Positions 9,639 through 49,251 of a DNA stretch of 64,000 bases are shown piece after piece. The notes under the pieces were generated by a model. The model was not told the DNA's origin, searched no databases, and saw nothing but the letters and a program-made list of their open reading frames with translations. Source of the stretch: Ostreococcus lucimarinus (taxonomy: Eukaryota); the NCBI GenBank assembly GCA_000092065.1, contig CP000589.1; one strand, 5' to 3'. Made by a program: the position numbers and the translations under genes. Numbering within the stretch: the stretch's first letter is position 1; each line of letters opens with the position of its first letter.

Positions 9639-9641
9639 ATG
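9639..9641 (+). CDS. RPL18: 60S ribosomal protein L18 (eL18) exon 1 (ATG only)
   Basis: ATG immediately followed by donor GTGCGT; supplies the Met missing from exon 2, which begins GIDL.. (eL18 starts MGIDL). Confidence 0.6.
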
Positions 9642-9982
9642 GTGCGTGCGCGCGCGATCGACGACGGCGCGGTGATGCGTTCGATGCGCGGGGTCGCGAC
9701 GCGCGGGCGCGCGACGCGCGACGGGCGCGCGCGACGGGCGCGACGCGAGAAGCGCGATGCGAGACGCGTGGGGTTTCGGCGCGGCGACGCGGGGCGTCGA
9801 TGGCGACGACGGCGGGCGATGGCGCGCGCCGGGGAGGGGGGAGAGGGTGGAGATGAATACGTGGGATCGATCGCGCGACGCGCGGGGACGCGGGCGGCGG
9901 GGGGGGCGACGGGGGGGGCGAGGGATGGGCGATCGAGCGATCGGCGCGACTGACGGGACGACGCGATGTTTCGACGACGTAG

Positions 9983-10072
9983 GGTATCGATCTTAAGGCT
10001 GGTGGCCGTAACAAGAAGACCAATCGCACGGCGCCGAAGTCTGACAATGTGTACTTGAAGCTCTTGGTGAAG
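9983..10072 (+). CDS. RPL18: eL18 exon 2
   Basis: After TAG acceptor (branch ACTGACG 9949-9955) encodes '[30 protein letters not shown]', the canonical eL18 N-terminus; ends AAG|GTGCGC. Confidence 0.8.
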
Positions 10073-10232
10073 GTGCGCGAACGACGCGACGGAGGGACGG
10101 GGGAAGGATGGGGACGACGGCGAGGAAAGCCCTAGCCGGGAGGTCGCGCGCGACGACGCGCGAAACGCGAAGGCGAGGCGATGATGATGCGATTGGAGAG
10201 ACTGACGAATGATGATGCGCTCGCGATGACAG

Positions 10233-10700
10233 CTTTACCGATTTTTGGCTCGCCGTACGGATTCCAAGTTCAACGACACCGTGCTCAAGCGCTTGTTCAT
10301 GTCGAAGACGAACCGCCCGCCGTTGTCCTTGTCCAAGGTGGCCAAGTTCATGAAGGGTAAGGAGGGCAAGGTTGCGGCGATCGTGGGGACGGTGACCGAT
10401 GACGTGCGTCTCCACGACGTGCCGGCGTTGAAGGTGTGCGCGCTTCGTTTCACCGAAACCGCGCGCGCGCGTATCATCAAGGCGGGCGGACAGTGCATGA
10501 CGTTCGACCAGCTCGCGCTCTCCGCGCCGACGGGTGAAGGCGTCGTGCTCTTGCGAGGTCCGAAGAACTCGCGCGAGGCAGTCAAGCACTTCGGCGCGCC
10601 GGGTGTTCCGGGCTCCCACGCCAAGCCGTACGTCCGCGCCAAGGGCCGCAAGTTCGAGAAGGCTCGCGGTCGACGCGCCAGCCGCGGTTACAAGGCATAA
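10233..10700 (+). CDS. RPL18: eL18 exon 3
   Basis: After acceptor 'gatgacAG' (branch ACTGACG 10201-10207) continues '[36 protein letters not shown]...', full eL18 body to stop. The ORF-track 'M' at 10245 is TTG, not a real start. Confidence 0.85.
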
Positions 10701-10840
10701 ACTTAAACGCTTCGGGGCGTTTTTTTACTGTGTTTGTGATCAGATTAGCGACGCGCTTGGATGGTATAGCGAATTCTTTGAAATGTGAGACATCGAGCGT
10801 AAACTTAAAACATCTACACGACTTCCTACTCTTGCGGCGT

Positions 10841-11041
10841 AGCGTACAACTGGTGCTCATCTGGACGTGATCTCGACCGACTGCGACGAGTCGTCCTCCT
10901 CGGCGACTCGTCGCAGTCGGTGTACGTGATCTCGACCGACTGCGACGAGTCGTCCTCCTCGGCGACTCGTCGCAGTAGCGTACAACTGGTGCTCATCTGG
11001 ACGTGATCTCGACCGACTGCGACGAGTCGTCCTCCTCGGCG
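10841..11041. repeat. Tandem ~68-bp repeat (3 copies) carrying a 17-bp perfect-stem hairpin
   Basis: 'gtgatctcgaccgactgcgacgagtcgtcctcctcggcgactcgtcgcagt' at 10867-10917, 10926-10976 and truncated at 11003-11041; flank 'agcgtacaactggtgctcatctggac' repeated at 10841 and 10977; arms ccgactgcgacgagtcg / cgactcgtcgcagtcgg are reverse complements. Confidence 0.9.
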
Positions 11042-14578: not shown

Positions 14579-15073
14579 TTAAGCTTCCGGGAACTGGAAC
14601 GAGCATTCCTTCCCGGTGAGCTTCTTGTACACACCCGCGAACGTGTCGAGCTTGTACTCGGTCGTGCTGCGGTCCTTCGGGTCCAAGTACACCTTGAGGA
14701 GGCGAGAGCCGTCCAATCGGTAGCGCTGGCGCTTGCCGACAATCTCCGTCGGGTAAACCAAATCTTCCAACAACGCCGCGTGGACCGCGGTGAGAGTGCG
14801 AGATCTAGGGCGCGAGCGCGCCATGTTGTTCGACGGAACCGGCATAATGCGACGGTTCGCGACGATCACCACATCCTTACCGCTGAACTTCTTCTCGAGC
14901 TCGCGCACCAAGCGTTGTTGAATCTTGTGGTACGACTTCAACGCGCGGTACGGCACGTGAATCACGATCGCGGTACGACCGCCCGCAACCTCAACCTCAG
15001 CCGCGGAGTTGATGTAAAGATCCTTAAGATCCGCCTTGAGCTCGGCGTTCGACGCCTCGAGTTCGATCATGGC
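14579..15073 (-). CDS. RPS7: 40S ribosomal protein S7 (eS7) exon 3
   Basis: '[22 protein letters not shown]...[14 protein letters not shown]...[28 protein letters not shown]' is canonical eS7. Acceptor 'cttttcttgagCAG' with branch ACTGACG just upstream. Confidence 0.9.
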
Positions 15074-15341
15074 CTGCTCAAGAAAAGCGTTTCGCGCGCG
15101 TCAGTCGTCAAGCCCCGCGCGCGTCGTCCTCACCCATCGCACCATCGCGCCGTCTCGCGCCTATGCCCGCGCCCGTCCATCGCCGCGCACTCTCCCGAGC
15201 GACGCGCCGAAATACAATTCCCGCATTCATCGCCCTCGTCGCGCCGCCGCGCGCGCGCGCGCGCCCCGCCGCGCGCGCGATCGTCCCGACAAACCCTAAA
15301 GCCGCGCAACGCGCATCGCATCGCGTCGTCTCTCATCGTAC

Positions 15342-15395
15342 CTGCGCCACGGTCTCCTCAAACGGGGTCAACGCCGCGCCGTTCGCCTTGACAAT
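15342..15395 (-). CDS. RPS7: eS7 exon 2
   Basis: Encodes 'IVKANGAALTPFEETVAQ' (cf. human 'KIVKPNGEKPDEFESGISQ'); flanked by TAG acceptor and CAG|GTACGA donor; in-frame stop just upstream proves it is an internal exon. Confidence 0.8.
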
Positions 15396-15597
15396 CTATT
15401 CGTTCGTAATCGTCTCTCCGTCAGTCGCGGTTCGAGGCGCGTCGCGTCGGGCGCGGCGCGGCGTCGTCGCGACGTCGCGATCGTCGAAAGCCCCAGCGCG
15501 CGCGCCGCGGTCGGCGCGGGCGCGGACGCGCGGTGCGCGGGACGGCGCGCGGTGAGGCGCGCGCGATGGTCGGCGCGTCGTTCTTCTCGCGGCGCAC

Positions 15598-15612
15598 CTT
15601 CGTGGACGACAT
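15598..15612 (-). CDS. RPS7: eS7 exon 1 (5 codons MSSTK)
   Basis: ATG TCG TCC ACG AAG | GTGCGC consensus donor; joined product 'MSSTKIVKANG..' matches eS7 'MFSSSAKIVKPNG..'. Confidence 0.7.
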
Positions 15613-15803
15613 GTTCGCGTGAGTCGCTGCGCGCGTCGGAAAGACGGATGCCGCGACGCGCGCGGCGGACTCGAGGCGGTTCTAAACCCTCGTCCTTTTG
15701 GAGCGCGAGACGACGAACGCGAGACCAGGGCGAACGAGAGTGAACAAAAATAGTGTGTGTGTGCATTCAATAGAAGCCGCGAAAAAGACAGTTGAGCTTT
15801 GCT

Positions 15804-27153: not shown

Positions 27154-27248
27154 CTGCGCCGCGCGCGTCAGTCCTTCGATGTTCGAATCCTCCGCGCGCG
27201 TCCGCGCGTCGCGCGCGTCCCGTCCCGTTCCGGCGGTCACCGGCGCAC

Positions 27249-30854: not shown

Positions 30855-31675
30855 TTAGTCGACGCGTAACGAGACGCTCGCGCCCGTCTCGTCGAATCGC
30901 GCAAACGCGTTTTCGGTTTCGTCGTCGCCGATTCCGGCGTCTCGCACGCACTCGAACATCTTTTTGCCCGCCTCTCGCGCGGTTCGCACGTGTACCTTGA
31001 GATCGTCGACGTCTTGCGGGGGGTACGCTCCCGCTCCGATTTCTTCGACACAATTTTGAAACTCCAAGCACGCGTCGACGATTGGCTCGAGCGCTTCCAG
31101 CCGCGCCGTCTTCTCTTTCACCGTCGGTAAAATCAAAGCCTTCAACAGCGCGACGCACTCCTTGACGAACACGCGCAGAGCCTTCGCGTTCGCCATCTCC
31201 GTCTCGCTGAAATCGTCGTCGCAAAATCTCAAATCATCCTCGTCCGTTCGCGTCGAAGCCGCCGCGCCTTCCTCGTCCTCGCCGAGCGCGCGCATCTCGT
31301 CGTCCACGTCCTTGACGAACCTCGCGCACGTCATCAAACGCGCCGCCACCGCGCGCACCGCATCTTTCGGCGCCTTTGCGAACGCTTTCGACGCCTCCCA
31401 AACGGCGCCCACGCCTCGTCGCACGTTCGCCGCGCGCCCTTCCCTCGCCCTCGCGCACGCCGCTCGAATCGTCGCCTTCGTCGCCTCGCAGCTCGCCCGC
31501 GCGAGATTCGATATCTCCTCTCGAAAGCACCGCCCCGCGTTTCCGCGCGCCTCGAGCGTCTTCGCCGTCTCCAGCGTCAGCGCCGCGTGCGCGTCGCGCA
31601 GCGCCGCGAGCACCGACCGCGCCGCGTCGTCGTCCTCGTCGAACGCGTCGTCGTCGTCGTTAAAGTACACCCCGA
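30855..31675 (-). CDS. Hypothetical protein exon 2 (acidic, helical; GCIP-like?)
   Basis: Non-repetitive ORF 'GVYFNDDDD...LRVFVKECVALLKALILPTVKEKTARLEALEPIVDACLEFQNCVEE...'. Begins right after a CAG acceptor with ACTGACG branch (31703-31709) 24 nt upstream. Confidence 0.5.
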
Positions 31676-31760
31676 CTGCGTCGCCGTCGCGCGCGCGTCC
31701 GTCGTCAGTCCGAATCCGTCGTCGTCGCTCGCGCGACGCGTCGTCTCGCGCGCGTCGCAC

Positions 31761-32010
31761 CTTTCGCCGCCTCGGCGTCGAGTCGCGCGCACGCCGCGAC
31801 GCACGCGCGCGTCGTCGCCGCGCCTTCGTCGTCGCCGCGCTCGCGCGCGCGCGCGTCGCGCGCGCGCGTCGTCGCCGCGTCCGCCGCCGGGACGCCCTTC
31901 GTCGCGCCTTCGTCGTCGCCGCGCGCGCGCGCGCGCGCGGTGGACGCGCCCGCGTCGCACGCGCGCGCGAGCTCTTCGCCGTGCGCCTCGAGATCGCGCG
32001 CGCGCGGCAT
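31761..32010 (-). CDS. Same hypothetical gene, exon 1
   Basis: Different frame from exon 2; 'MPRARDLEAHGEELARACDAGAS...LDAEAAK' ends 'AAAG|GTGCGA' (phase 1), which combines with exon 2 'TC' to give Val, in frame with exon 2. Start Met uncertain (32010/32094). Confidence 0.4.
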
Positions 32011-32710
32011 GGCGACGCGCGCGCGAGTCGACGTCCGCGGCGTCGCGCGTCGAATCGTTCGCATCGCATCGCATCGCATCGTCTCGCGTCGCACCGCGCG
32101 TTCCGTCGCGTCTTCGCTCGCCGCTCCATCATTCCAAATCGTCTCCGTCTACGTCTCGCTTCGATTCGCGTCGCGCGCGGCGCGTCGTCGCGCGCTTCGA
32201 TTCGTCCGCGTCGCCGTCGCGCGCGCGTCGTCGTCCTCGCGCGCGTCGACCGCCTCGCGCGTCTCCATCGCCGCGCGCTGGCTCGGCGTCATCCGCGTCG
32301 TTTTGACTCTATTTTTTCTCGCGAGTTTTCCCTCGTTCGCCGCCGTCACGCGTCGTCGTCGCGCGTCGTCCTCGCGCGCGTCGGCTTCCTCGCGTCGGTC
32401 GAGCGCCTCGCGCGCGGCGATGTACGCCATCCCGCCCGTGATGACGACGAGCAGCGCCGCGGCGACGCCGAACGCGAGGCCGACGAGCGTCTCGCTCGAC
32501 GTCGCGGCGTTCGCGGCGTCGAGCGCGGCGTCGTTCGCGCCGCGGCGCGCGACGTCGCGGATTCGCGCGGACGCGGATTCGCGCGACGCGACGCCGCGCG
32601 CTTCGACGGACGCGCGCGCGATCCGCGGCGTCGCGCGACGCGACGCGCGAATCCGCGTCCGCGGACGCCGCGTCGCGACGTCGCGGGACGTCGCGACGGC
32701 GACGCGCGCG

Positions 32711-33943
32711 ATGGATGCGCGCGGCATGGCGTCGAGTGACGACGACGCGGTATCCGCGCATCGCGACGCGCGCGCGCGCGACGCGTCGGCGCCGCGCGGC
32801 GACGGCGCGATGCCGCGCGCGCGCGCGGACGCGACGCGGGACGCGCGTCGGCGCGCGCGCGACGCGGGACGCGCGACGACGACGCCGACGGCGCGAAATC
32901 CGCGACGGCGCGCGCGACGGCGCGCGAGCGCGCCGAAGCGACGCGCGAGCGCCGAGCGCGTCGCGGAGACGGGCGCGAAGAACGCGTACTTCGCGCGCGT
33001 CGACGCGACGGCGCTGGCGGAGGAGGAGGCGCGCGACGACGACGACGCGAAGACGACGCGACGAAGACGCGACGAAGACGACGGGACGGGCGACGCGGCG
33101 ACGCTCCCGCCGGTGTTCGCGGCGGTGACGCGCGCGACGGTGACGGCGATGACGACGGCGAAGGCGCGGCGACGGGCGAGCGATCCCGCGGGCGCGGTGC
33201 GGAGGATCTTTGACGAACGACGCGCGAGACGGGCGGCGGCGACGATTCGGACGACGACGACGACGAACGCGGGACGAAGGACGAGCGAGCCGACGCCGGC
33301 GCGCGCGCGATTCGCACGCGCGTTGGATGGCGCTTTGGACGACGCTTTGGACGACGCGGAGGCGAGCGGAGGGGCGAGCGCGCGGGATGGGGACGACGAC
33401 GCGAGCGACGGGGCGTACGGGTTGTTGCTTCGCGCGGCGCGAGACGAACGCGCGGCGAGAGACGCGTCGTTGCCCGAGGAGTACTCGTTGCAGGAGGTGC
33501 GAGACGGCGGCGCGGCGTGCGAAGATTTGGTCGCGCTGTCCGTCGCGTTCGAGCGCGAGGACGCGCGCGTCGGGTCGCTCGCCGGCGGTTTGGGGGGCGC
33601 GGTGGCGCACGTCTTGCGAACCGCCTCGGGCGAAGCCGTCGGGTACACGTTGACGTACGAAAACCGCGCCCCGGAGTGGGACCGCGCGCGCGCCGTCGTT
33701 CTTCCTCCGCGACTCGCGCACGTGTTCATTCGTCGAGATCACCGCATGCGAGGACTCGGAACGGGTTTGGTGAATTGGTGGCGACGTCGATTCGCGCTGC
33801 GATGCGCTTTTTTCGCCGTCGATTCGCCCAACGACTCGATGACGCGAACGTTGCTTCGCGTCGAATGCGCGCCGGCCACGACGCGTTCGGGTCACGGCGC
33901 GTCTAGTGTACATTACATAGCTCCAGTCGCGGCGTCTTCGTGA
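32711..33943 (+). CDS. Hypothetical protein with C-terminal GNAT-like acetyltransferase motif; N-terminal half extreme low complexity
   Basis: C-terminal 'VVLPPRLAHVFIRRDHRMRGLGTGLVNWW' resembles GNAT motif A (R-G-x-G). ATG 32711 is the first plausible start; the N-terminal half sits in >75% GC sequence open in all six frames. Confidence 0.35.
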   Translation: MDARGMASSDDDAVSAHRDARARDASAPRGDGAMPRARADATRDARRRARDAGRATTTPTARNPRRRARRRASAPKRRASAERVAETGAKNAYFARVDATALAEEEARDDDDAKTTRRRRDEDDGTGDAATLPPVFAAVTRATVTAMTTAKARRRASDPAGAVRRIFDERRARRAAATIRTTTTTNAGRRTSEPTPARARFARALDGALDDALDDAEASGGASARDGDDDASDGAYGLLLRAARDERAARDASLPEEYSLQEVRDGGAACEDLVALSVAFEREDARVGSLAGGLGGAVAHVLRTASGEAVGYTLTYENRAPEWDRARAVVLPPRLAHVFIRRDHRMRGLGTGLVNWWRRRFALRCAFFAVDSPNDSMTRTLLRVECAPATTRSGHGASSVHYIAPVAASS

Positions 33944-33984
33944 GCCGAGAGGTTTCACGAGCGCGCGGCGCGCGTTGTAAATTT

Positions 33985-35238
33985 CTATTCCAGCCGGGCG
34001 GGACCTCGGTCCGCCGTCGCGGCGATGTACTTACCAGTCTTTCTGCAGCGGTCGACGTCGTACCCACCGACGAGTTTCGCGCGAATACGATCGGGTAGCT
34101 TGAGCGACGCCTCGACGTCAGCCTTCGTCGCCCCGCGGCCGAGCAAGCGTTCCATGTGCTCGCGGCGCACGCCGTTTTCGAGCACGTCGCGCGTCTCCAC
34201 GCCGCTCTCGTGACTGTCCCATCGAACGCGCTCTTGAAGTTCTTCGTGCATCGCGCGCAAGACGGCCTGCGCCAAGGCGAGCTGACCTTGCGTCTCGGTT
34301 ATCTTGGATTTGAGGTCTTCGGCGTCGCAATCTTCCAAGTCGTCAAAGTACACGCCGCATTCGCGTACGTTGTACGATTCCCCGGTGACTTGGCTCGTGA
34401 GCGTCAAACCTTCGTGCAAGCGATCGATGAGATCGGCATCGACGACGCGACGCGTGAAACAGTCTTCGGGAATGACGCCGCACGATCCAACCTCGAGACC
34501 GCGACGTATTTCTTCTAGATGCGCGATTCGCAAGTGTAGCGCGGCGACGCGACGATCGCGTTCGGCGATCTTTCGCACCAAAGGTTCCGCCTCGCTTTGG
34601 AGCCCTCTGTATCGGCCGAACTCTTCCGCGAACTTCCCCTCCCCGCTCCACGCGAATTCGTACTTGGTCTTTCCCTTCTCGTACCCCTCGTCGCCCTCTT
34701 CTAATTTCCGCGGCGTCCACACCTCGGGATTCTTCCCGACGCTCGCCGCGCGCGTCCCGAGCGACCGCGCGCCTTCGGCCACGACTTCACACATCGCACT
34801 CGCGCACGCTTCCATCGCTGGATGTAACGGGTCGATCGTCAACGCTCCGTCCAACACTTCGCACGTCCCTCGACCGTCGTCATCTCTCGCGTTACCGAAT
34901 CGCAGCTGCACCGCCGCGCCGCGTTCCGCCAACGTCCCGAGCTGTCGCTGCGCCACCTCTCGCGCGTCTACGATCTTCGTCAGCCTCGGTTCGATCGATC
35001 GCGTGAACCTCACGCCGTGAATTTCGATCAAGCACGTATCGCACGCGCGCGACACGCGCCCGTCGCCGTCCTCAACGCGCGTCAAGCGCGTCATGTGCCC
35101 GGTCGTCCCAGTCGTCGTCGCGCGCACGAGTTTCGAGCGTTTCGTGCGGTCGAAGCGGAACGCGATCGTCTTCGCTCGAACGGTGGCGTCGGCGGACGAG
35201 GTAAACATGACGCGCACGTCGTGCGCGACGTCGGTCAT
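33985..35238 (-). CDS. Hypothetical protein (N-terminal beta-rich domain, central coiled coil, C-terminal 'LKLPDRIRAKLVGGYD' tail)
   Basis: Clean 417-codon ORF from ATG 35238 with coding-like composition; no family recognised. Confidence 0.5.
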   Translation of the reverse strand: MTDVAHDVRVMFTSSADATVRAKTIAFRFDRTKRSKLVRATTTGTTGHMTRLTRVEDGDGRVSRACDTCLIEIHGVRFTRSIEPRLTKIVDAREVAQRQLGTLAERGAAVQLRFGNARDDDGRGTCEVLDGALTIDPLHPAMEACASAMCEVVAEGARSLGTRAASVGKNPEVWTPRKLEEGDEGYEKGKTKYEFAWSGEGKFAEEFGRYRGLQSEAEPLVRKIAERDRRVAALHLRIAHLEEIRRGLEVGSCGVIPEDCFTRRVVDADLIDRLHEGLTLTSQVTGESYNVRECGVYFDDLEDCDAEDLKSKITETQGQLALAQAVLRAMHEELQERVRWDSHESGVETRDVLENGVRREHMERLLGRGATKADVEASLKLPDRIRAKLVGGYDVDRCRKTGKYIAATADRGPARLE

Positions 35239-35470: not shown

Positions 35471-37447
35471 ATGACGGCGCGCCATGACGCGCGCGCGCGA
35501 GCCGGTCGACGCCGCGTCGTCATCGTCGCGGTGTTGGCGGCCTGGGCGTGGGCGACCGCGGCGAGTGCGGCGCCGTTCGAGAACGCCGCGGCGCTCAAAG
35601 CAGCGGTGAACAATTGCCTCGCGGCGAGTCACACGGGTGATTGCGATTGCTCGAGCGCGTCTGTGGACTGTGGGGCGGCGGGGAGCGACGCGATGTCGCA
35701 GTGGGACACGAGTCTGGTTCCGGACATGAGCTACTTGTTCCACGACGCCCGTTCCTTCAATCAGTCCATCGGGAACTGGAATACGAGTCAAGTAACGAAC
35801 ATGGTTGGGATGTTCTTGTACGCCGCTGCTTTCAATCAGCCCATCGGGAACTGGGACACGAGTCAAGTGACTAACATGACTGACATGTTTGCGATCGCCC
35901 GTTCCTTTAACCAACCCATTGGTGACTGGAACACGAGCCAAGTCATGGACATGCGTTTTATGTTCGCTACTGCTTATGCTTTCGATAGTCCTATCCGCAA
36001 CTGGGACATCAGCCAAGTGACGAACACGAGTTACATGTTCTATTCTATTGCTGCATCTTTCAATGTTTTCAACCAATCCGTCGAGAACTGGAACACGAGC
36101 CAAGTTATGGACATGCGTGGGATGTTCGGGAACGCACGTTACTTCAACAAGCCTATCGGCGGCTGGAACACGAGCCAGGTTACGGACATGCGTAACATGT
36201 TCGTTACCGCCTCTTCCTTCAACCAGCCCATCGGTGACTGGGACACGAGCCAGGTTACGGACATGCGTTACATGTTCGCTACCGCCTCTTCCTTCAACCA
36301 GCCCATCGGTGACTGGGACACGAGCCAGGTTACAGACATGCGTGGAATGTTGGGGTCTGTGTCCTTCAATCAGCCCATCGGGAACTGGAACACGAGCCAG
36401 GTTACAGACATGCGTACGATGTTCGCTACCGCCTCTTCCTTCAACGCGCCTATCGGTGACTGGAACACGAGCCAAGTTACAGACATGGGTAGAATGTTTT
36501 ACGCAGCCTCTTCTTTTAACCGGTCTATTGGCGACTGGAACACGAGCCAAGTCACGGACATGCAGTCGATGTTTTACGCCTCTTCATTCGATCAACCCAT
36601 CGGGAACTGGGACACAAGCCTAGTCACATACATGAATTCGATGTTCAACAGCGCAGTTTCCTTCAACCAGTCTATCGGTGGCTGGAACACGAGCCGAGTG
36701 GTGAGCATGCAGTCGATGTTCGCGAACGCATTTTCCTTCAACCAGCCCATCGGGAACTGGAACACGGGCCGAGTGGTGAGCATGCATTCCATGTTTGACA
36801 GCGCAGTTTATTTCAACCAGCCCATCGGGAACTGGAACACGGGCCGAGTGGTGAGCATGAATTCCATGTTTGACAGCGCAGGCTTTTTCAACCAGCCCAT
36901 CGGGAACTGGGACACGAGCCAGGTTACAGACATGAATTCCATGTTTGATAGCGCAGGCTCTTTCAACCAGCCCATCGGGAACTGGAACACGAGCCAGGTT
37001 ACAGACATGAATTCCATGTTTGATAGCGCAGGCTCTTTCAACCAGCCCATCGGTGACTGGGACACGAGCCAGGTTACAGACATGCATTGGATGTTCCAGG
37101 GTGCCTCTTCCTTCAACCAGCCTATTGGAGACTGGGATACGAGCCAAGTGGTGACCTCGTACTCATTTAGCGAAATGTTCAAGGACGCAACGGCGTGGCT
37201 ATGCTCACACACACACAATACGTCGGATCCGATGCATTTTCAAAGATACTACGATGGTCCACCGTCTTTTTGGTTCGAGTCAGCGGCTGGAATCGGTGCA
37301 GTGTGCTTGTCTCCACCACCGCCAACCACACTACCGTGTGTATATGTCGCCGCCCCTCCGTTGACCGCAAGGTCGACTGGAACCGCGAGGTCGAGTGTCG
37401 CACTCTCGCTATATACGACAGTCATTATCATATACTTCCACGCCTGA
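35471..37447 (+). CDS. Secreted/surface tandem-repeat protein, 20 x 25-aa 'FNQPIGNW[ND]TSQVTDMxxMFxxAxS' repeats (Mycoplasma DUF285-type motif)
   Basis: Signal peptide '[20 protein letters not shown]', a ~60-aa head, then 20 near-regular 25-residue repeats, a Cys-containing tail and a hydrophobic C-terminus (GPI/TM-like). Confidence 0.75.
35700..37200 (+). repeat. 75-bp tandem repeat array x20 (coding; DUF285-like protein)
   Basis: Periodicity evident at DNA and protein level; units 17 and 18 identical at protein level ('NW[DN][22 protein letters not shown]'). Confidence 0.9.
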
Positions 37448-37642: not shown

Positions 37643-39808
37643 TTACAACTCGAGGCAAACTGAGGGCGTCGAGACATAATCGCCATCACCTGTCGCAGCG
37701 CGCGCGAAAATCTCTATCACGACGTCGGCGGCGGTGGCGGGCGTGAGTCCGCACGCCACGACGGGAACGACGATGATAGAAACGTCGTACACGCGCCGAA
37801 TCGCCGACGCGAGAGTCTCACTGAGCGCCGAATCGACGCTTAAATTATGATACAGTCGGCATGTGGACACATGCGACGCGGTCAGCTCGGCTTCGCCTAA
37901 ATACAGTGCGATTCGTGCCAAGATGTGCCCGTTGGTGAGCTCATCACTTTTCAAGACGGCTTGTTTGACGCTGATTGAACACTGGAGGAATCGCCCTGGG
38001 CGGCGAACGCTCGTCGATTCCATCACGTCGCAAGCCGAGTCGCCTCGCACAGACTCGCGCACGAGCGTTTCCTCGCCATCGAACGATTCTTCGTCGCCGA
38101 GAGGTCCTGTGCCGACGAGCAACGTGGGAGCGATCTCACCGATGGCGTTCTTTGGAAGATCGGTGACGGTGAGGTACGTCGTCGTCGGGCGCCATAGAAA
38201 TCTTCGTCCACTCTGCGCGACGACGCGTTCGAAGGACGCCGACATCACGTTCGCTGGATGCACGCCCTCTGCTTCGTAGTCTGCGTTGTACTTCGCACTA
38301 GTGTAGAACGTCACCGCCAGCGCTCGTTCACCAAGTGGCGCACCCGTGATGTCTGCGACAGCGACGGCGCTCGCCATCGCGCGGTCGAGTTGGGCAACTA
38401 TTCCGGGCACCAAGTCTAACGTTGTCGGCTCCATACCGATTTGCCCGGCCACGTACGCCAGGCCGTTCACACGAATCGACTGACCGTACGGCCCGATGCA
38501 CGCGGGAGCCCACGACGACAGTGACTGCACGTGTAGTGATTTTCGTTCGTTACCGCCGTCGAGGATGAACAAGCAATCAATCTGAACCTTGGCGTCGCCG
38601 GGCAAGCACGTGGCGACGCACGCGCGGGCGCTGGGCGCGACGGGCGGCATGTATCTAGAATACACGCCATTAACCGTTGCGAACTGGCTCATATCATCTA
38701 GATAAACGTGCGTCATGGCGACATTACGCCACGCCTCAGTCGCCCCGTCCTCGCCGAGTTTTTCGGCGACGAGAGCGCGCATCGTCTGAAAAATAGCCTC
38801 CGCACACGTTTCGTGCGTCTCGCTCGCTGGATCTGCGGCGCGCAAAGACACCGAAAGTATCGAACCCACTAAGCCTATCGTGTGATGCACACGGCAGGTC
38901 GTACCTGTGACTGCAACGCAACCTTCGGTTTCGGCCGTGAACTCCAACGTCGCGGACGCCGTCGCCGACGCTCTCACGCGAGGCGCGTCGTCTTCGACCC
39001 AAATCACCCTCCCGGGCGCGATTTCATCCCCCTTCTCTTTGAGCACGACGTCAAACGCGTCGATGACCAAGTGACCGCTCGGCGCGAATCGATCTTCGCT
39101 CGTCTTCACCGTCCTCGTCTCCGTAATCGCCAAACTCGCGCGAGCGAACATCGGACAATCCACCACGAGCGTCTCAAACTCCCCGCCTTCGCCCGCGCAG
39201 TGCGACCCGTACTCATCTTCAACCCTAATCAGCGTCTCCCTCGCGTCCGCGATGGACATCCCCAAGTGTTTCCCCGGATCCAATCCCATCGCCGCCACCT
39301 TGACCAGACGCGCGTCGACGCCCTCCGCCTCCACCCGCCGTAAAACCTCTCGCTGTTCCACGCGCCACAGCGGCGCCAACGACGTCAGCCCCAGGCTCGC
39401 GCACACCGCTTCCACCCGCAACCGCTGATAATCGCTCAGTATCGCCCCCGAGCACACGCTATTCACATCCGGTCGCTCGCGTTTCGCCGCCGCCAACGCC
39501 GCGCGCAAATCCTCCACCTCGTCCCCCTCCTCTCCGTCCCCGTACTCCAGCCCCAGCGCCTTCGACCGCCCCGTGATCCGTCGGCGGTACACGTCCAACC
39601 CCGCGCACGCCGCGAACGCCCCCACGCACTCGTGCGCGACCGTCTGAAAGCAGTGCGAGTCCACCTCGCGCGTCGCCGCGTCCCTCGGGCACAGGTTGAC
39701 GAGGCACGCCACCGTCGCGTCCGCGCGCCTCGACGTCTCGATCGCCGCCAAAACGCCGTCCTTGCCGCCGGACACGAGCGCCGCGCACGCGTACCGCCGC
39801 TCGGGCAT
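37643..39808 (-). CDS. DPH6: Diphthine-ammonia ligase (DPH6/ATPBD4): PP-loop ATPase + two RidA/YjgF domains
   Basis: 'AALVSGGKDG' PP-loop, 'SVCSGAILSDYQRLRVEAVCASLGLTSLAPLW', then two RidA-like modules ('..AGQIGMEP..'). Same architecture as yeast Dph6. ATG 39808. Confidence 0.85.
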   Translation of the reverse strand: MPERRYACAALVSGGKDGVLAAIETSRRADATVACLVNLCPRDAATREVDSHCFQTVAHECVGAFAACAGLDVYRRRITGRSKALGLEYGDGEEGDEVEDLRAALAAAKRERPDVNSVCSGAILSDYQRLRVEAVCASLGLTSLAPLWRVEQREVLRRVEAEGVDARLVKVAAMGLDPGKHLGMSIADARETLIRVEDEYGSHCAGEGGEFETLVVDCPMFARASLAITETRTVKTSEDRFAPSGHLVIDAFDVVLKEKGDEIAPGRVIWVEDDAPRVRASATASATLEFTAETEGCVAVTGTTCRVHHTIGLVGSILSVSLRAADPASETHETCAEAIFQTMRALVAEKLGEDGATEAWRNVAMTHVYLDDMSQFATVNGVYSRYMPPVAPSARACVATCLPGDAKVQIDCLFILDGGNERKSLHVQSLSSWAPACIGPYGQSIRVNGLAYVAGQIGMEPTTLDLVPGIVAQLDRAMASAVAVADITGAPLGERALAVTFYTSAKYNADYEAEGVHPANVMSASFERVVAQSGRRFLWRPTTTYLTVTDLPKNAIGEIAPTLLVGTGPLGDEESFDGEETLVRESVRGDSACDVMESTSVRRPGRFLQCSISVKQAVLKSDELTNGHILARIALYLGEAELTASHVSTCRLYHNLSVDSALSETLASAIRRVYDVSIIVVPVVACGLTPATAADVVIEIFARAATGDGDYVSTPSVCLEL

Positions 39809-43390: not shown

Positions 43391-43481
43391 ATGAGTCTTC
43401 GCCCGGGGTCCAAGGCGAGCGAACGGAAGAAGGGCTTCAAGAAAGCCATCGACGCCGATGAGGCGCGACGGAAGCGCGAAG
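43391..43481 (+). CDS. KPNA: Importin-alpha exon 1 (IBB domain start)
   Basis: 'MSLRPGSKASERKKGFKKAIDADEARRKRE' (cf. 'MSLRPSERVEVRRNRYKVAVDAEEGRRRRED'), ends GAAG|GTGCGC. Confidence 0.85.
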
Positions 43482-43696
43482 GTGCGCGGGGTGACGCGCG
43501 CGAGCGATGACGCGCGCGGACGGGCGCGGAGACGGCGCGCGGGCGCGAAGCGAGGGAGATTAAGTCGCGGTGGGATGATCTGGCGGCACGAAAACGGTGG
43601 ACGCGCGCGCGCGCAGCGCGCGCGCGAGGCGACGGCGACGCGGAGACGACGAAGGACTGACGATGCACGCGCGCGCGCGGTGGTCGGCGAACGCAG

Positions 43697-43754
43697 ATAA
43701 CATGATTCAGATTCGTAAGGATAAGCGCGAGGAGGCGATGATGAAGAAGCGAAG
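43697..43754 (+). CDS. KPNA: Importin-alpha exon 2
   Basis: 'DNMIQIRKDKREEAMMKKRR' (IBB 'DNMVEIRKSKREESLLKKRR'); CAG acceptor with ACTGACG 24 nt upstream; ends AG|GTGCGC. Confidence 0.85.
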
Positions 43755-43849
43755 GTGCGCGCGAGACGACGACGCGCGCGAGGCGGAAAACGCGAACGCG
43801 CGGTGATTCATCGGACGGTGACTGACGAAGTGGGTTTATGATGACGCAG

Positions 43850-45296
43850 GGACGGTGCGACTGGAAGCGTGGCGTCGGATTCGACGGCGATGACGGGTTC
43901 GCCGGGCGGGGGATCGGTGCAGAGCAAGCTCGCGCAGTTGCCGCAAATGCTTGAAGCGCTGAAGAACCCGGATCCGAACGTGCAACTCGAGGCAACGATT
44001 GCGTTTCGTAAACTTCTTTCCATCGAGCGATCGCCGCCGATCGATCAGGTGATTGAGACCGGCGCGACGCCGTTTTTCGTCGAGTTTTTAAAGCGTACCG
44101 ATGTTCCAAAGTTGCAGTTTGAAGCCGCGTGGGCGCTGACGAACATCGCCTCTGGTACGAGCGAGCACACGGCGATCGTGATCGATCATGGGGCTGTGCC
44201 CATCTTTATCGCGCTGTTGGGTTCAGACAACCCCGACGTGCGCGAGCAAGCGGTTTGGGCGCTCGGGAACATCGCGGGCGACAGTCCGCGGTGCCGCGAC
44301 TTGGTGTTGCACGCCAACGCGTTGCATCCGCTCCTCGCGCAACTCAACGCCGAAGCGAAGATCCAGATGCTTCGTAACGCGACGTGGACTTTGTCGAACT
44401 TTTGCCGCGGTAAACCTCAGCCTGACTTTAGCGCGTTGCGAGCGGCGCTTCCGGCGCTCGCTCGCTTGGTGCACTCGAACGACGAGGAGGTGCTCACTGA
44501 TGCGTGCTGGGCGCTCTCGTACCTTAGCGACGGTACGAACGACAAGATCCAGGCCGTTATCGAGGCTGGAGTGTGCCGACGTCTCGTGGAGCTCTTGGCG
44601 AGCAACCATCCGAGCGTGTTGATTCCGGCGCTTCGAACGGTTGGTAACATCGTGACCGGCGACGACTATCAGACTCAAATCATCATCAACTGCCACGCTC
44701 TGAAGGCGTTGCTCGGATTATTGGCGGGAGACTACAAGAAGAGCATTAAAAAGGAAGCGTGCTGGACGATCTCGAACATCACCGCCGGTAACAAGGACCA
44801 AATCCAAAGCATCATTGACGAGCAAATGGTGCCGCCGTTGGTCGAGTTGCTCGCCAACGCCGAATTCGATATTAAGAAGGAGGCGGCCTGGGCGATTTCT
44901 AACGCCACGAGCGGTGGTACGCATCAACAGATCAAGTATCTCGTCAGCCAAGGGTGCATCAAGCCGCTGTGTGATCTCATCAACTGCAGCGACGCGCGCA
45001 TCGTCACCGTCGCGCTCGAGGGGTTGGAGAACATTTTAAAAGTCGGCGAGGCTGATCGCGGCGACAACATGGAAGCCCCGAACGTTTTCGCGCAATACAT
45101 CGACGAAGCCGAGGGGTTGGAGAAGATCGAATCGTTACAGAATCACACCAACGACGACATTTACCAAAAGGCGATGCGTCTTTTGGAGACGTATTTCGGT
45201 TTAGAGGACGACGACGCGCAAAACCTCATGCCCGAGGTCCAGGGCGACCAGTTCGCCTTCGGCGCCGGCGCGCCCACGGGCGGGTTCAACTTTTAG
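43850..45296 (+). CDS. KPNA: Importin-alpha exon 3 (ARM repeats to stop)
   Basis: Ten ARM repeats ('[30 protein letters not shown]..', 'WALTNIASG', 'WALGNIAGD', 'WTISNITAG', 'WAISNATSG'). The ORF-track 'M' is GTG. Total 532 aa. Confidence 0.9.
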
Positions 45297-48978: not shown

Positions 48979-49251
48979 CGCGGGCGGCGCGCGTCGCGAT
49001 GCGTCGCGACGCGTCGTCGCGTCGTCGTCGGCGGCGGTGTCGCCCGCACGCCCGGGTGTTTCGGTCACGCCCGGGTGTTTCGACCGGTCGGTCGCCGCGT
49101 TCCAGCGTGGCGACGGCCGATCGCGCGAGACCGCGACGCGCGCGCGCGACGCGCCGAGGCGCGCGCGACGCGAGCGACGGGCACCGCGATCGAGAGCGCG
49201 CGGACGGCGTCTCGACCGCGTCGCGCGACGCGACGACGTCGAGCGACGACG

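Follow-up and report, generated by a model that had tools for sequence, protein, structure and literature searches.

Short introns with a shared splice signature in a 64-kb window of Ostreococcus lucimarinus, and their probable standing as canonical spliceosomal introns

Background

The RPL18 gene of Ostreococcus lucimarinus starts with an exon that consists of the start codon alone, followed by an intron whose splice signals recur in other genes of the same region. An earlier note on this DNA had read these recurrences as the uniform signature of seven introns, had likened their branch sites to the constrained ones of intron-poor yeasts, had attributed their position near the 5' ends of genes to intron loss mediated by reverse transcriptase (RT), and had wondered whether they share an origin with the introner elements of Micromonas. 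The question is what kind of introns these are, and what may have kept them where they stand. The window, meaning here the whole stretch of DNA that was analysed, is 64 kb long and has a GC content of 63.6%. Our analysis indicates that its introns almost certainly belong to the ordinary U2-type (major-spliceosome) introns, that is, to the 'canonical' class that occurs all through the normal-GC portion of Mamiellophyceae genomes, in this case in O. lucimarinus.

Introns of the window and the genes that carry them

A signal scan (GT[AG]CG...ACTGAC...YAG) combined with manual splicing yields eight introns in five of about 39 genes: two each in RPL18, RPS7 and importin-alpha, and one each in an HVA22-like and a GCIP-like gene, the latter having been listed as 'hypothetical'. 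The previous count of seven is thus one short: importin-alpha has two introns, the second of which is probably the one that was left uncounted. Individual introns measure 85 to 341 nt and sum to 1,461 nt; from the range of 84-341 nt given before, the maximum stands and the minimum becomes 85 nt. Nearly all the genes of the window are single-exon genes with complete domains, according to Pfam scans of all the long ORFs, which were used instead of a ranking by codon usage or GC3, unreliable in such GC-rich DNA. A relaxed scan of the window, with a [N]CTRAY branch site and a GT[AG][CA]G donor, gave nine matches and no credible further intron; the nine were rejected as lying antisense to genes or inside continuous Pfam domains. 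Introns in untranslated regions, or with non-consensus signals, could escape such a scan, and the word 'uniform' may to that extent overstate the case.

Each of the five genes, once spliced, keeps its coding continuity across the junctions, and all the junctions outside RPS7 are crossed collinearly by Pfam domains and plant homologues. Direct RNA support covers the two RPS7 introns (2 of 8); the other six are supported by annotation (exact RefSeq models), collinear homology and orthologue comparison. The first gene is RPL18:

9639-10700, plus strand: RPL18 (eL18) gene, exons 9639-9641 (ATG alone), 9983-10072 and 10233-10700
9642-9982, plus strand: RPL18 intron 1, 341 nt, phase 0, donor ATG/GTGCGTGC; branch site GACTGACG, heptamer at 9949-9955, predicted branch A 29 nt from the TAG acceptor
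10073-10232, plus strand: RPL18 intron 2, 160 nt, phase 0, donor AAG/GTGCGCGA; heptamer at 10201-10207, predicted branch A 27 nt from the CAG acceptor

Read from the ATG at 9639 to the stop codon at 10700, the spliced RPL18 translation is identical, residue for residue, to XP_001419602.1 (Ostreococcus lucimarinus CCE9901), and its Pfam Ribosomal_L18 match (residues 2-185 against profile positions 1-187 of 188) spans the junctions. An exact look-up found no contigs encoding the exact spliced RPL18 or HVA22-like protein. Just 3' of the RPL18 stop codon, and overlapping the 3' end of a convergent MEX1-like (maltose-exporter-like) gene, positions 10839-11041 hold a 67-nt unit three times over in direct orientation, with two identical copies, one at 67% identity, and perfect 18-nt inverted repeats inside them. 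These copies could act as a bidirectional terminator, or they could stem from a local duplication of recent date.

The second ribosomal-protein (RP) gene lies on the opposite strand:

14579-15612, minus strand: RPS7 (eS7) gene, exons 15612-15598, 15395-15342 and 15073-14579
15396-15597, minus strand: RPS7 intron 1, 202 nt, phase 0, donor AAG/GTGCGCCG; heptamer at 15419-15425, predicted branch A 25 nt from the TAG acceptor
15074-15341, minus strand: RPS7 intron 2, 268 nt, phase 0, donor CAG/GTACGATG; heptamer at 15099-15105, predicted branch A 27 nt from the CAG acceptor

An uninterrupted 187-aa RPS7 coding sequence is found in four RNA-derived contigs (L001-L004; three from JGI records, one from a Logan run). 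Aligned to the window, these contigs fall into three blocks, the gaps between which are exactly the two introns. The product has a full-length Pfam Ribosomal_S7e match. In two of these contigs, L001 and L004, both from metatranscriptomes, RPS7 is joined on one contig to an ABC-F gene and to a SET/LSMT-like gene whose end is in antisense, which points to overlapping or read-through transcripts over very short intergenic spacers.

The remaining three genes carry four introns:

43391-45296, plus strand: importin-alpha gene, exons 43391-43481, 43697-43754 and 43850-45296
43482-43696, plus strand: importin-alpha intron 1, 215 nt, phase 1, donor AAG/GTGCGCGG; heptamer at 43656-43662, predicted branch A 36 nt from the CAG acceptor
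43755-43849, plus strand: importin-alpha intron 2, 95 nt, phase 2, donor AAG/GTGCGCGC; heptamer at 43821-43827, predicted branch A 24 nt from the CAG acceptor
27154-27248, minus strand: intron of the HVA22-like gene (exons 27464-27249 and 27153-26842), 95 nt, phase 0, donor AAG/GTGCGCCG; heptamer at 27166-27172, predicted branch A just 14 nt from the CAG acceptor
30855-32010, minus strand: GCIP-like gene with Pfam GCIP_N and GCIP_C, exons 32010-31761 and 31675-30855
31676-31760, minus strand: GCIP-like intron, 85 nt, phase 1, donor AAG/GTGCGACG; heptamer at 31703-31709, predicted branch A 29 nt from the CAG acceptor

Once spliced, the N-terminus of importin-alpha (MSLRPG...) aligns with plant importin-alpha from residue 1, with both junctions free of gaps, and includes a complete Pfam IBB domain (residues 12-99 against profile positions 1-88 of 89). 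The HVA22-like gene, when spliced, encodes exactly XP_001419818.1 (O. lucimarinus), and the Pfam TB2_DP1_HVA22 match of its product covers the exon junction; this protein and XP_001419602.1 are both encoded on a record of 670,853 bp. The public record of these genes is patchier. The RefSeq entry of the GCIP-like gene (P0047) is a 252-aa 'predicted protein, partial' which has neither exon 1 nor the intron. For RPS7 and importin-alpha, no NCBI accession in the protein collection searched matches the spliced product exactly, and exact look-ups with alternative N-termini of both proteins did not find RefSeq models for them. The public models of the intron-containing genes of this region may have incomplete 5' ends.

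Splice signals and the published signature

The eight introns all have GT...AG boundaries, and none matches the U12-type signals (a /RTATCCTT donor and a TCCTTAAC branch site). Seven donors read GTGCG[C/T/A], one more than had been counted, and the eighth is the GTACGA of RPS7 intron 2, as previously described. The exon ends in AAG before six of the donors, in CAG before one and in ATG, the start codon itself, before another. The heptamer ACTGACG had been claimed for every intron and is indeed found in all eight, as is the whole octamer GACTGACG; the CAG or TAG acceptors were also correctly described (8 of 8), and the acceptor is in each case the first YAG past the octamer. The distance between heptamer and YAG is more variable than the 20-30 nt formerly proposed, with measured values of 9-31 nt; counted from the predicted branch A, the acceptor is 14-36 nt away. 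Pyrimidines make up only 25-55% of the sequence between branch site and acceptor; a polypyrimidine tract is therefore absent.

These signals suggest how the introns would be spliced. The 5' splice site, AAG/GTGCG[C/T/A], would be recognised by U1 and later by U6. SF1 and the GUAGUA box of the U2 snRNA would then engage ACUGAC, the branch site GACUGACG pairing with this box through a G-U wobble and the penultimate (second) A being bulged out to act as nucleophile. As 3' splice site, the first YAG located 14-36 nt 3' of the branch A would be used, by a presumed scanning rule that would take the place of the pyrimidine tract. ACTGACG is the predicted branch site, on the strength of its position and its complementarity to U2. 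Neither snRNA genes nor any other RNA genes were detected in the window by Rfam and tRNA scans. A Roy-lab preprint names the Mamiellales as one of the lineages whose donors are atypical, and finds the usual pairing region preserved in their U1 snRNA.

The signature itself is not new, since it was published for O. lucimarinus in 2008. Among EST-confirmed introns of this species from outside chromosome 2, which contains a low-GC outlier region, Irimia & Roy (2008; PLoS Genet 4:e1000148, PMC2483917) found ACTGAC in 87.2% and GACTGACG in 66.5%, together with a 5' splice site of 'atypical consensus GTGCGTG' (4.8 bits), and they read this combination as an intron-poor, strong-signal state like that of yeasts. 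The introns of the window come from the same species and share the 5' consensus, the ACTGAC/GACTGACG branch site and the reading as a convergence with yeasts. Nothing substantive differs from the published canonical introns, the octamer being present in 8 of 8 introns here versus 66.5% genome-wide. The signature was later extended to the Mamiellophyceae (Verhelst 2013, PMC3879977). The canonical introns of Micromonas RCC299 and CCMP1545 described there are likewise few per gene, with an AG/GTGCGT donor and an NCTGAC branch motif; this motif lies 43-52 nt from the acceptor in Micromonas, in contrast to the 14-36 nt of the window.

The earlier comparison with intron-poor yeasts, based on the invariance of the branch site, holds. 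With the 5' splice site, which is also unusually invariant, it coincides with what Irimia & Roy (2008, PMC2483917) concluded for O. lucimarinus. Saccharomyces and other hemiascomycetes resemble the window in their paucity of introns, in their near-invariant 5' splice and branch sites, in the 5' bias and RP-gene enrichment of their introns, and in the use of the first YAG after the branch site as acceptor. The signals themselves differ: GTATGT...TACTAAC...YAG in hemiascomycetes, as opposed to GTGCGY and an ACTGAC with a G-U wobble to U2 in the window, and the two lineages are independent. The genome of O. lucimarinus is intron-poor and its surviving introns have near-consensus signals. What was noticed in the window is an accurate one-window rediscovery of a known property of O. 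lucimarinus and the Mamiellophyceae.

Conservation of the introns in related lineages

A scan of metagenome contigs recovered 80 RPL18 loci (L017-L096) with protein identities of 77-100%, which appear to span several genera, to judge by the GC content of their introns and by protein identity. In all 80, RPL18 intron 1 follows right after the ATG. Intron 2 is found in the Ostreococcus-like loci (L017-L034), where it measures 132-172 nt, and in one distant lineage (L086), where it is 373 nt long with a GTGAGT donor and a pyrimidine tract. It is precisely absent from the remaining lineages, the Micromonas- and Bathycoccus-like orthologues included, all of which keep intron 1.

Within the Ostreococcus-like loci, the interiors of the RPL18 introns cannot be aligned. 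Their donors are GT[GA]CG (GTATG in one lineage), their acceptors YAG and their branch motif (A/T/G)CTGAC, with a variable seventh base. In the more distant lineages, such as the Micromonas-like orthologues, the distance between branch motif and acceptor is greater, and a long pyrimidine tract comes after the motif; none of the introns of the window has such a tract. A MAFFT alignment of orthologous introns detected no conserved core besides the splice signals and a short AAASCCY motif, to which we return below.

The other genes compared follow a similar pattern. In three further lineages (L097, L101 and L105), the RPS7 orthologues retain GT[GA]CG, ACTGAC and YAG in intron 1, and the orthologues of intron 2 all have GTACGT, ACTGAC and CAG. 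For the GCIP-like gene, two orthologous contigs preserve the coding capacity of exon 1, the position of the intron and the signals GT[GA]CG...GACTGACGA...CAG: L005 reads AAG/GTACGG...GTGACTGACGA...CAG, with an intron of 84 nt, and L006 reads GAG/GTGCGA...GGACTGACGA...CAG. A protein of the former lineage (P0051) reads straight across this 84-nt intron. Shared positions, unalignable interiors and preserved signals together indicate that the introns compared are old and positionally stable, and that their short signals are under constraint.

Position bias and a motif of the ribosomal-protein introns

What the comparison adds to the published picture bears on the persistence of the introns: the conservation of RPL18 intron 1, the absence of intron 2 outside the Ostreococcus-like loci (L086 excepted), and the motif found in RP introns. 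All the introns had been placed in the first 10% of their genes, which applies to four of the eight. Their relative positions in the coding sequence are 0.005 and 0.166 in RPL18, 0.027 and 0.122 in RPS7, 0.057 and 0.093 in importin-alpha, 0.409 in the HVA22-like gene and 0.233 in the GCIP-like gene, a range of 0.5-41%. A 5' bias does exist (mean relative position 0.14, all introns within the first 41%), and it is weaker than was asserted. That RPL18 intron 2 was lost and intron 1 retained is compatible with the pattern expected of RT-mediated, 3'-biased loss, and the process invoked before is to this extent a possible cause of the clean absence. The 5' bias would most likely result from the preferential loss of 3' introns, from the retention of 5' introns bearing regulatory DNA, or from both.

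The second of these routes has some material behind it in the RP genes. A telo-box-like motif, AAASCCY, searched on either strand, occurs exactly once in each of the four RP-gene introns:

9770-9776, either strand: AAASCCY in RPL18 intron 1
10126-10132, either strand: AAASCCY in RPL18 intron 2
15487-15493, either strand: AAASCCY in RPS7 intron 1
15291-15297, either strand: AAASCCY in RPS7 intron 2

A fifth copy lies in the 5' flank of RPS7 (15684-15690). The four non-RP introns have none. Four copies in 971 nt of RP intron compare with 0.22 expected, for a motif that was defined after seeing the data. The motif is also found in 13 of 14 orthologous RP introns, otherwise unalignable, of other Ostreococcus-like lineages (loci L023, L028, L029, L034, L097, L101 and L105, for the same two RP genes), where shuffles predict 0.45. 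In RPL18 the motif points one way in some lineages and the opposite way in others, which suggests an element acting at the DNA level. It resembles the plant telo-box AAACCCT(A), a known cis element of RP genes located around and downstream of the transcription start site (PMC2576244, PMC3212954). A limited literature search found no report of AAASCCY in Ostreococcus.

One may accordingly propose that the 5' introns were kept by selection rather than spared by RT-mediated loss, those of RP genes carrying transcriptional or expression-enhancing elements. The distribution of the motif between RP and non-RP introns, its recurrence in the orthologues and its change of orientation all favor this proposal, as does the excess of introns reported in highly expressed O. 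lucimarinus genes (Lanier 2008). Yet the motif was defined post hoc, from just two RP genes, and the non-RP introns are left unexplained. We regard selection as a possible cause of the bias that has somewhat less in its favor than against it; it would moreover complement the canonical-intron reading without excluding it. The narrower idea that the RP 5' introns of Ostreococcus were kept for a putative orientation-independent DNA element of the telo-box/site-II type, represented by AAASCCY, is drawn from sequence patterns and seems to us rather doubtful. If true, it would imply plant-type cis-regulation of RP genes inside prasinophyte introns, and it would provide a functional reason, beyond RT-mediated loss alone, why the surviving introns are biased both towards 5' ends and towards RP genes.

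Relation to introner elements

A different origin would make the introns of the window copies or derivatives of a mobile family like the introners of Micromonas, their common signature having been inherited from one ancestral element. Some observations lend themselves to this explanation: the eight introns share their donor and branch motifs, their pairwise local alignment scores exceed those of mononucleotide shuffles, and the IE-C elements of Micromonas commoda bear the same GACTGACG (PMC3879977). Nevertheless, the additional similarity consists of low-complexity, CG-rich sequence and is equal or stronger against GC-rich intergenic or N-terminal coding DNA, on both strands; RPL18 intron 1, for instance, matches positions 49118-49246 more closely than it does any other intron. 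When the eight introns were aligned pairwise and compared by BLAST with the window in search of multiple copies, short CG-rich low-complexity matches were all that was found. The lengths of the introns vary fourfold (85-341 nt) with no common core.

The shared octamer is explained in the literature. It was equated there with the extended branch motif that canonical Ostreococcus introns use, and its presence in the IE-C elements of RCC299 was attributed to the branch-point sequence preferred by the spliceosome of the lineage (PMC3879977). The introners of Micromonas (IE-A to IE-D) and the introns of the window are alike in being functional GT-AG introns with this lineage-typical motif, but the former are multi-copy, mutually similar and inserted at lineage-specific positions, while the latter have unique sequences and conserved positions where these were compared. 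No recent lineage-specific insertion is seen among the RPL18, RPS7 and GCIP-like introns: RPL18 intron 1 must be old, given its presence at the same site in every RPL18 locus, and so must RPL18 intron 2, both RPS7 introns and the GCIP-like intron, which are common to several Ostreococcus-like lineages. Furthermore, the host is Ostreococcus lucimarinus, as the two exact protein matches show, not Micromonas. The shared origin with Micromonas introners that had been raised as a question finds no family-type similarity among the eight introns to sustain it, and we consider it very improbable. The canonical-intron reading accounts for the common motifs as spliceosomal signals.

Use of the signature in gene finding

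ACTGACG is unenriched over the whole window (12 occurrences versus 10.7 expected); eight of the 12 fall within the 1,461 nt of intron and the other four within or antisense to coding sequence. The composite AG/GT[AG]CG...ACTGAC...YAG has eight matches in the window, compared to 0.31 +/- 0.57 (maximum 3) in 200 dinucleotide-preserving shuffles of it. Seven of these matches are true introns, the remaining true intron being preceded by ATG instead of AG, and one is false:

38174-38521, plus strand: false positive of the composite, GAG/GTACGT...ACTGACC...YAG, antisense to a diphthamide-synthase gene

Without the exon-end AG, the looser composite has ten matches versus 6.8 expected. That the signature is an artefact of chance and selection, with matches picked by the reader from GTGCG and ACTGACG motifs common at 64% GC, could draw on the unremarkable counts of the heptamer and of the looser composite but is hardly conceivable in view of the excess of the full composite, the concentration of heptamers in intron DNA at a fixed distance from acceptors, and the fact that splicing each candidate restores a conserved protein, two of the introns being gone from RNA contigs.

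The signature had also been recommended as a practical rule for finding hidden first exons, and in this respect it works: it leads to the 3-nt exon 1 of RPL18, the 15-nt exon 1 of RPS7 and exon 1 of the GCIP-like gene. Worded as (A/C)AG/GT[GA]CG...GACTGACG...first YAG, the rule is credited with all the introns found in the 64 kb at the cost of one false positive, RPL18 intron 1 standing apart by its ATG exon end. Its value is real and modest: micro-exons of 3 nt and 15 nt come to light with it, as do first exons overlooked by public models or by prokaryote-style gene calls.

Two other regions of the window stand out by their composition. Positions 32000-34000 form a 2-kb tract whose GC content is 72.8%; long ORFs occupy several of its frames, on both strands, and the two longest have no Pfam match. 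Positions 35471-37447 correspond to a 658-aa gene that consists of little else than DUF285 repeats ('Mycoplasma protein of unknown function', Pfam E = 1e-193) and lies where the GC content of the window is lowest (about 52% versus 64%). This gene is compositionally atypical, and its horizontal acquisition is possible.
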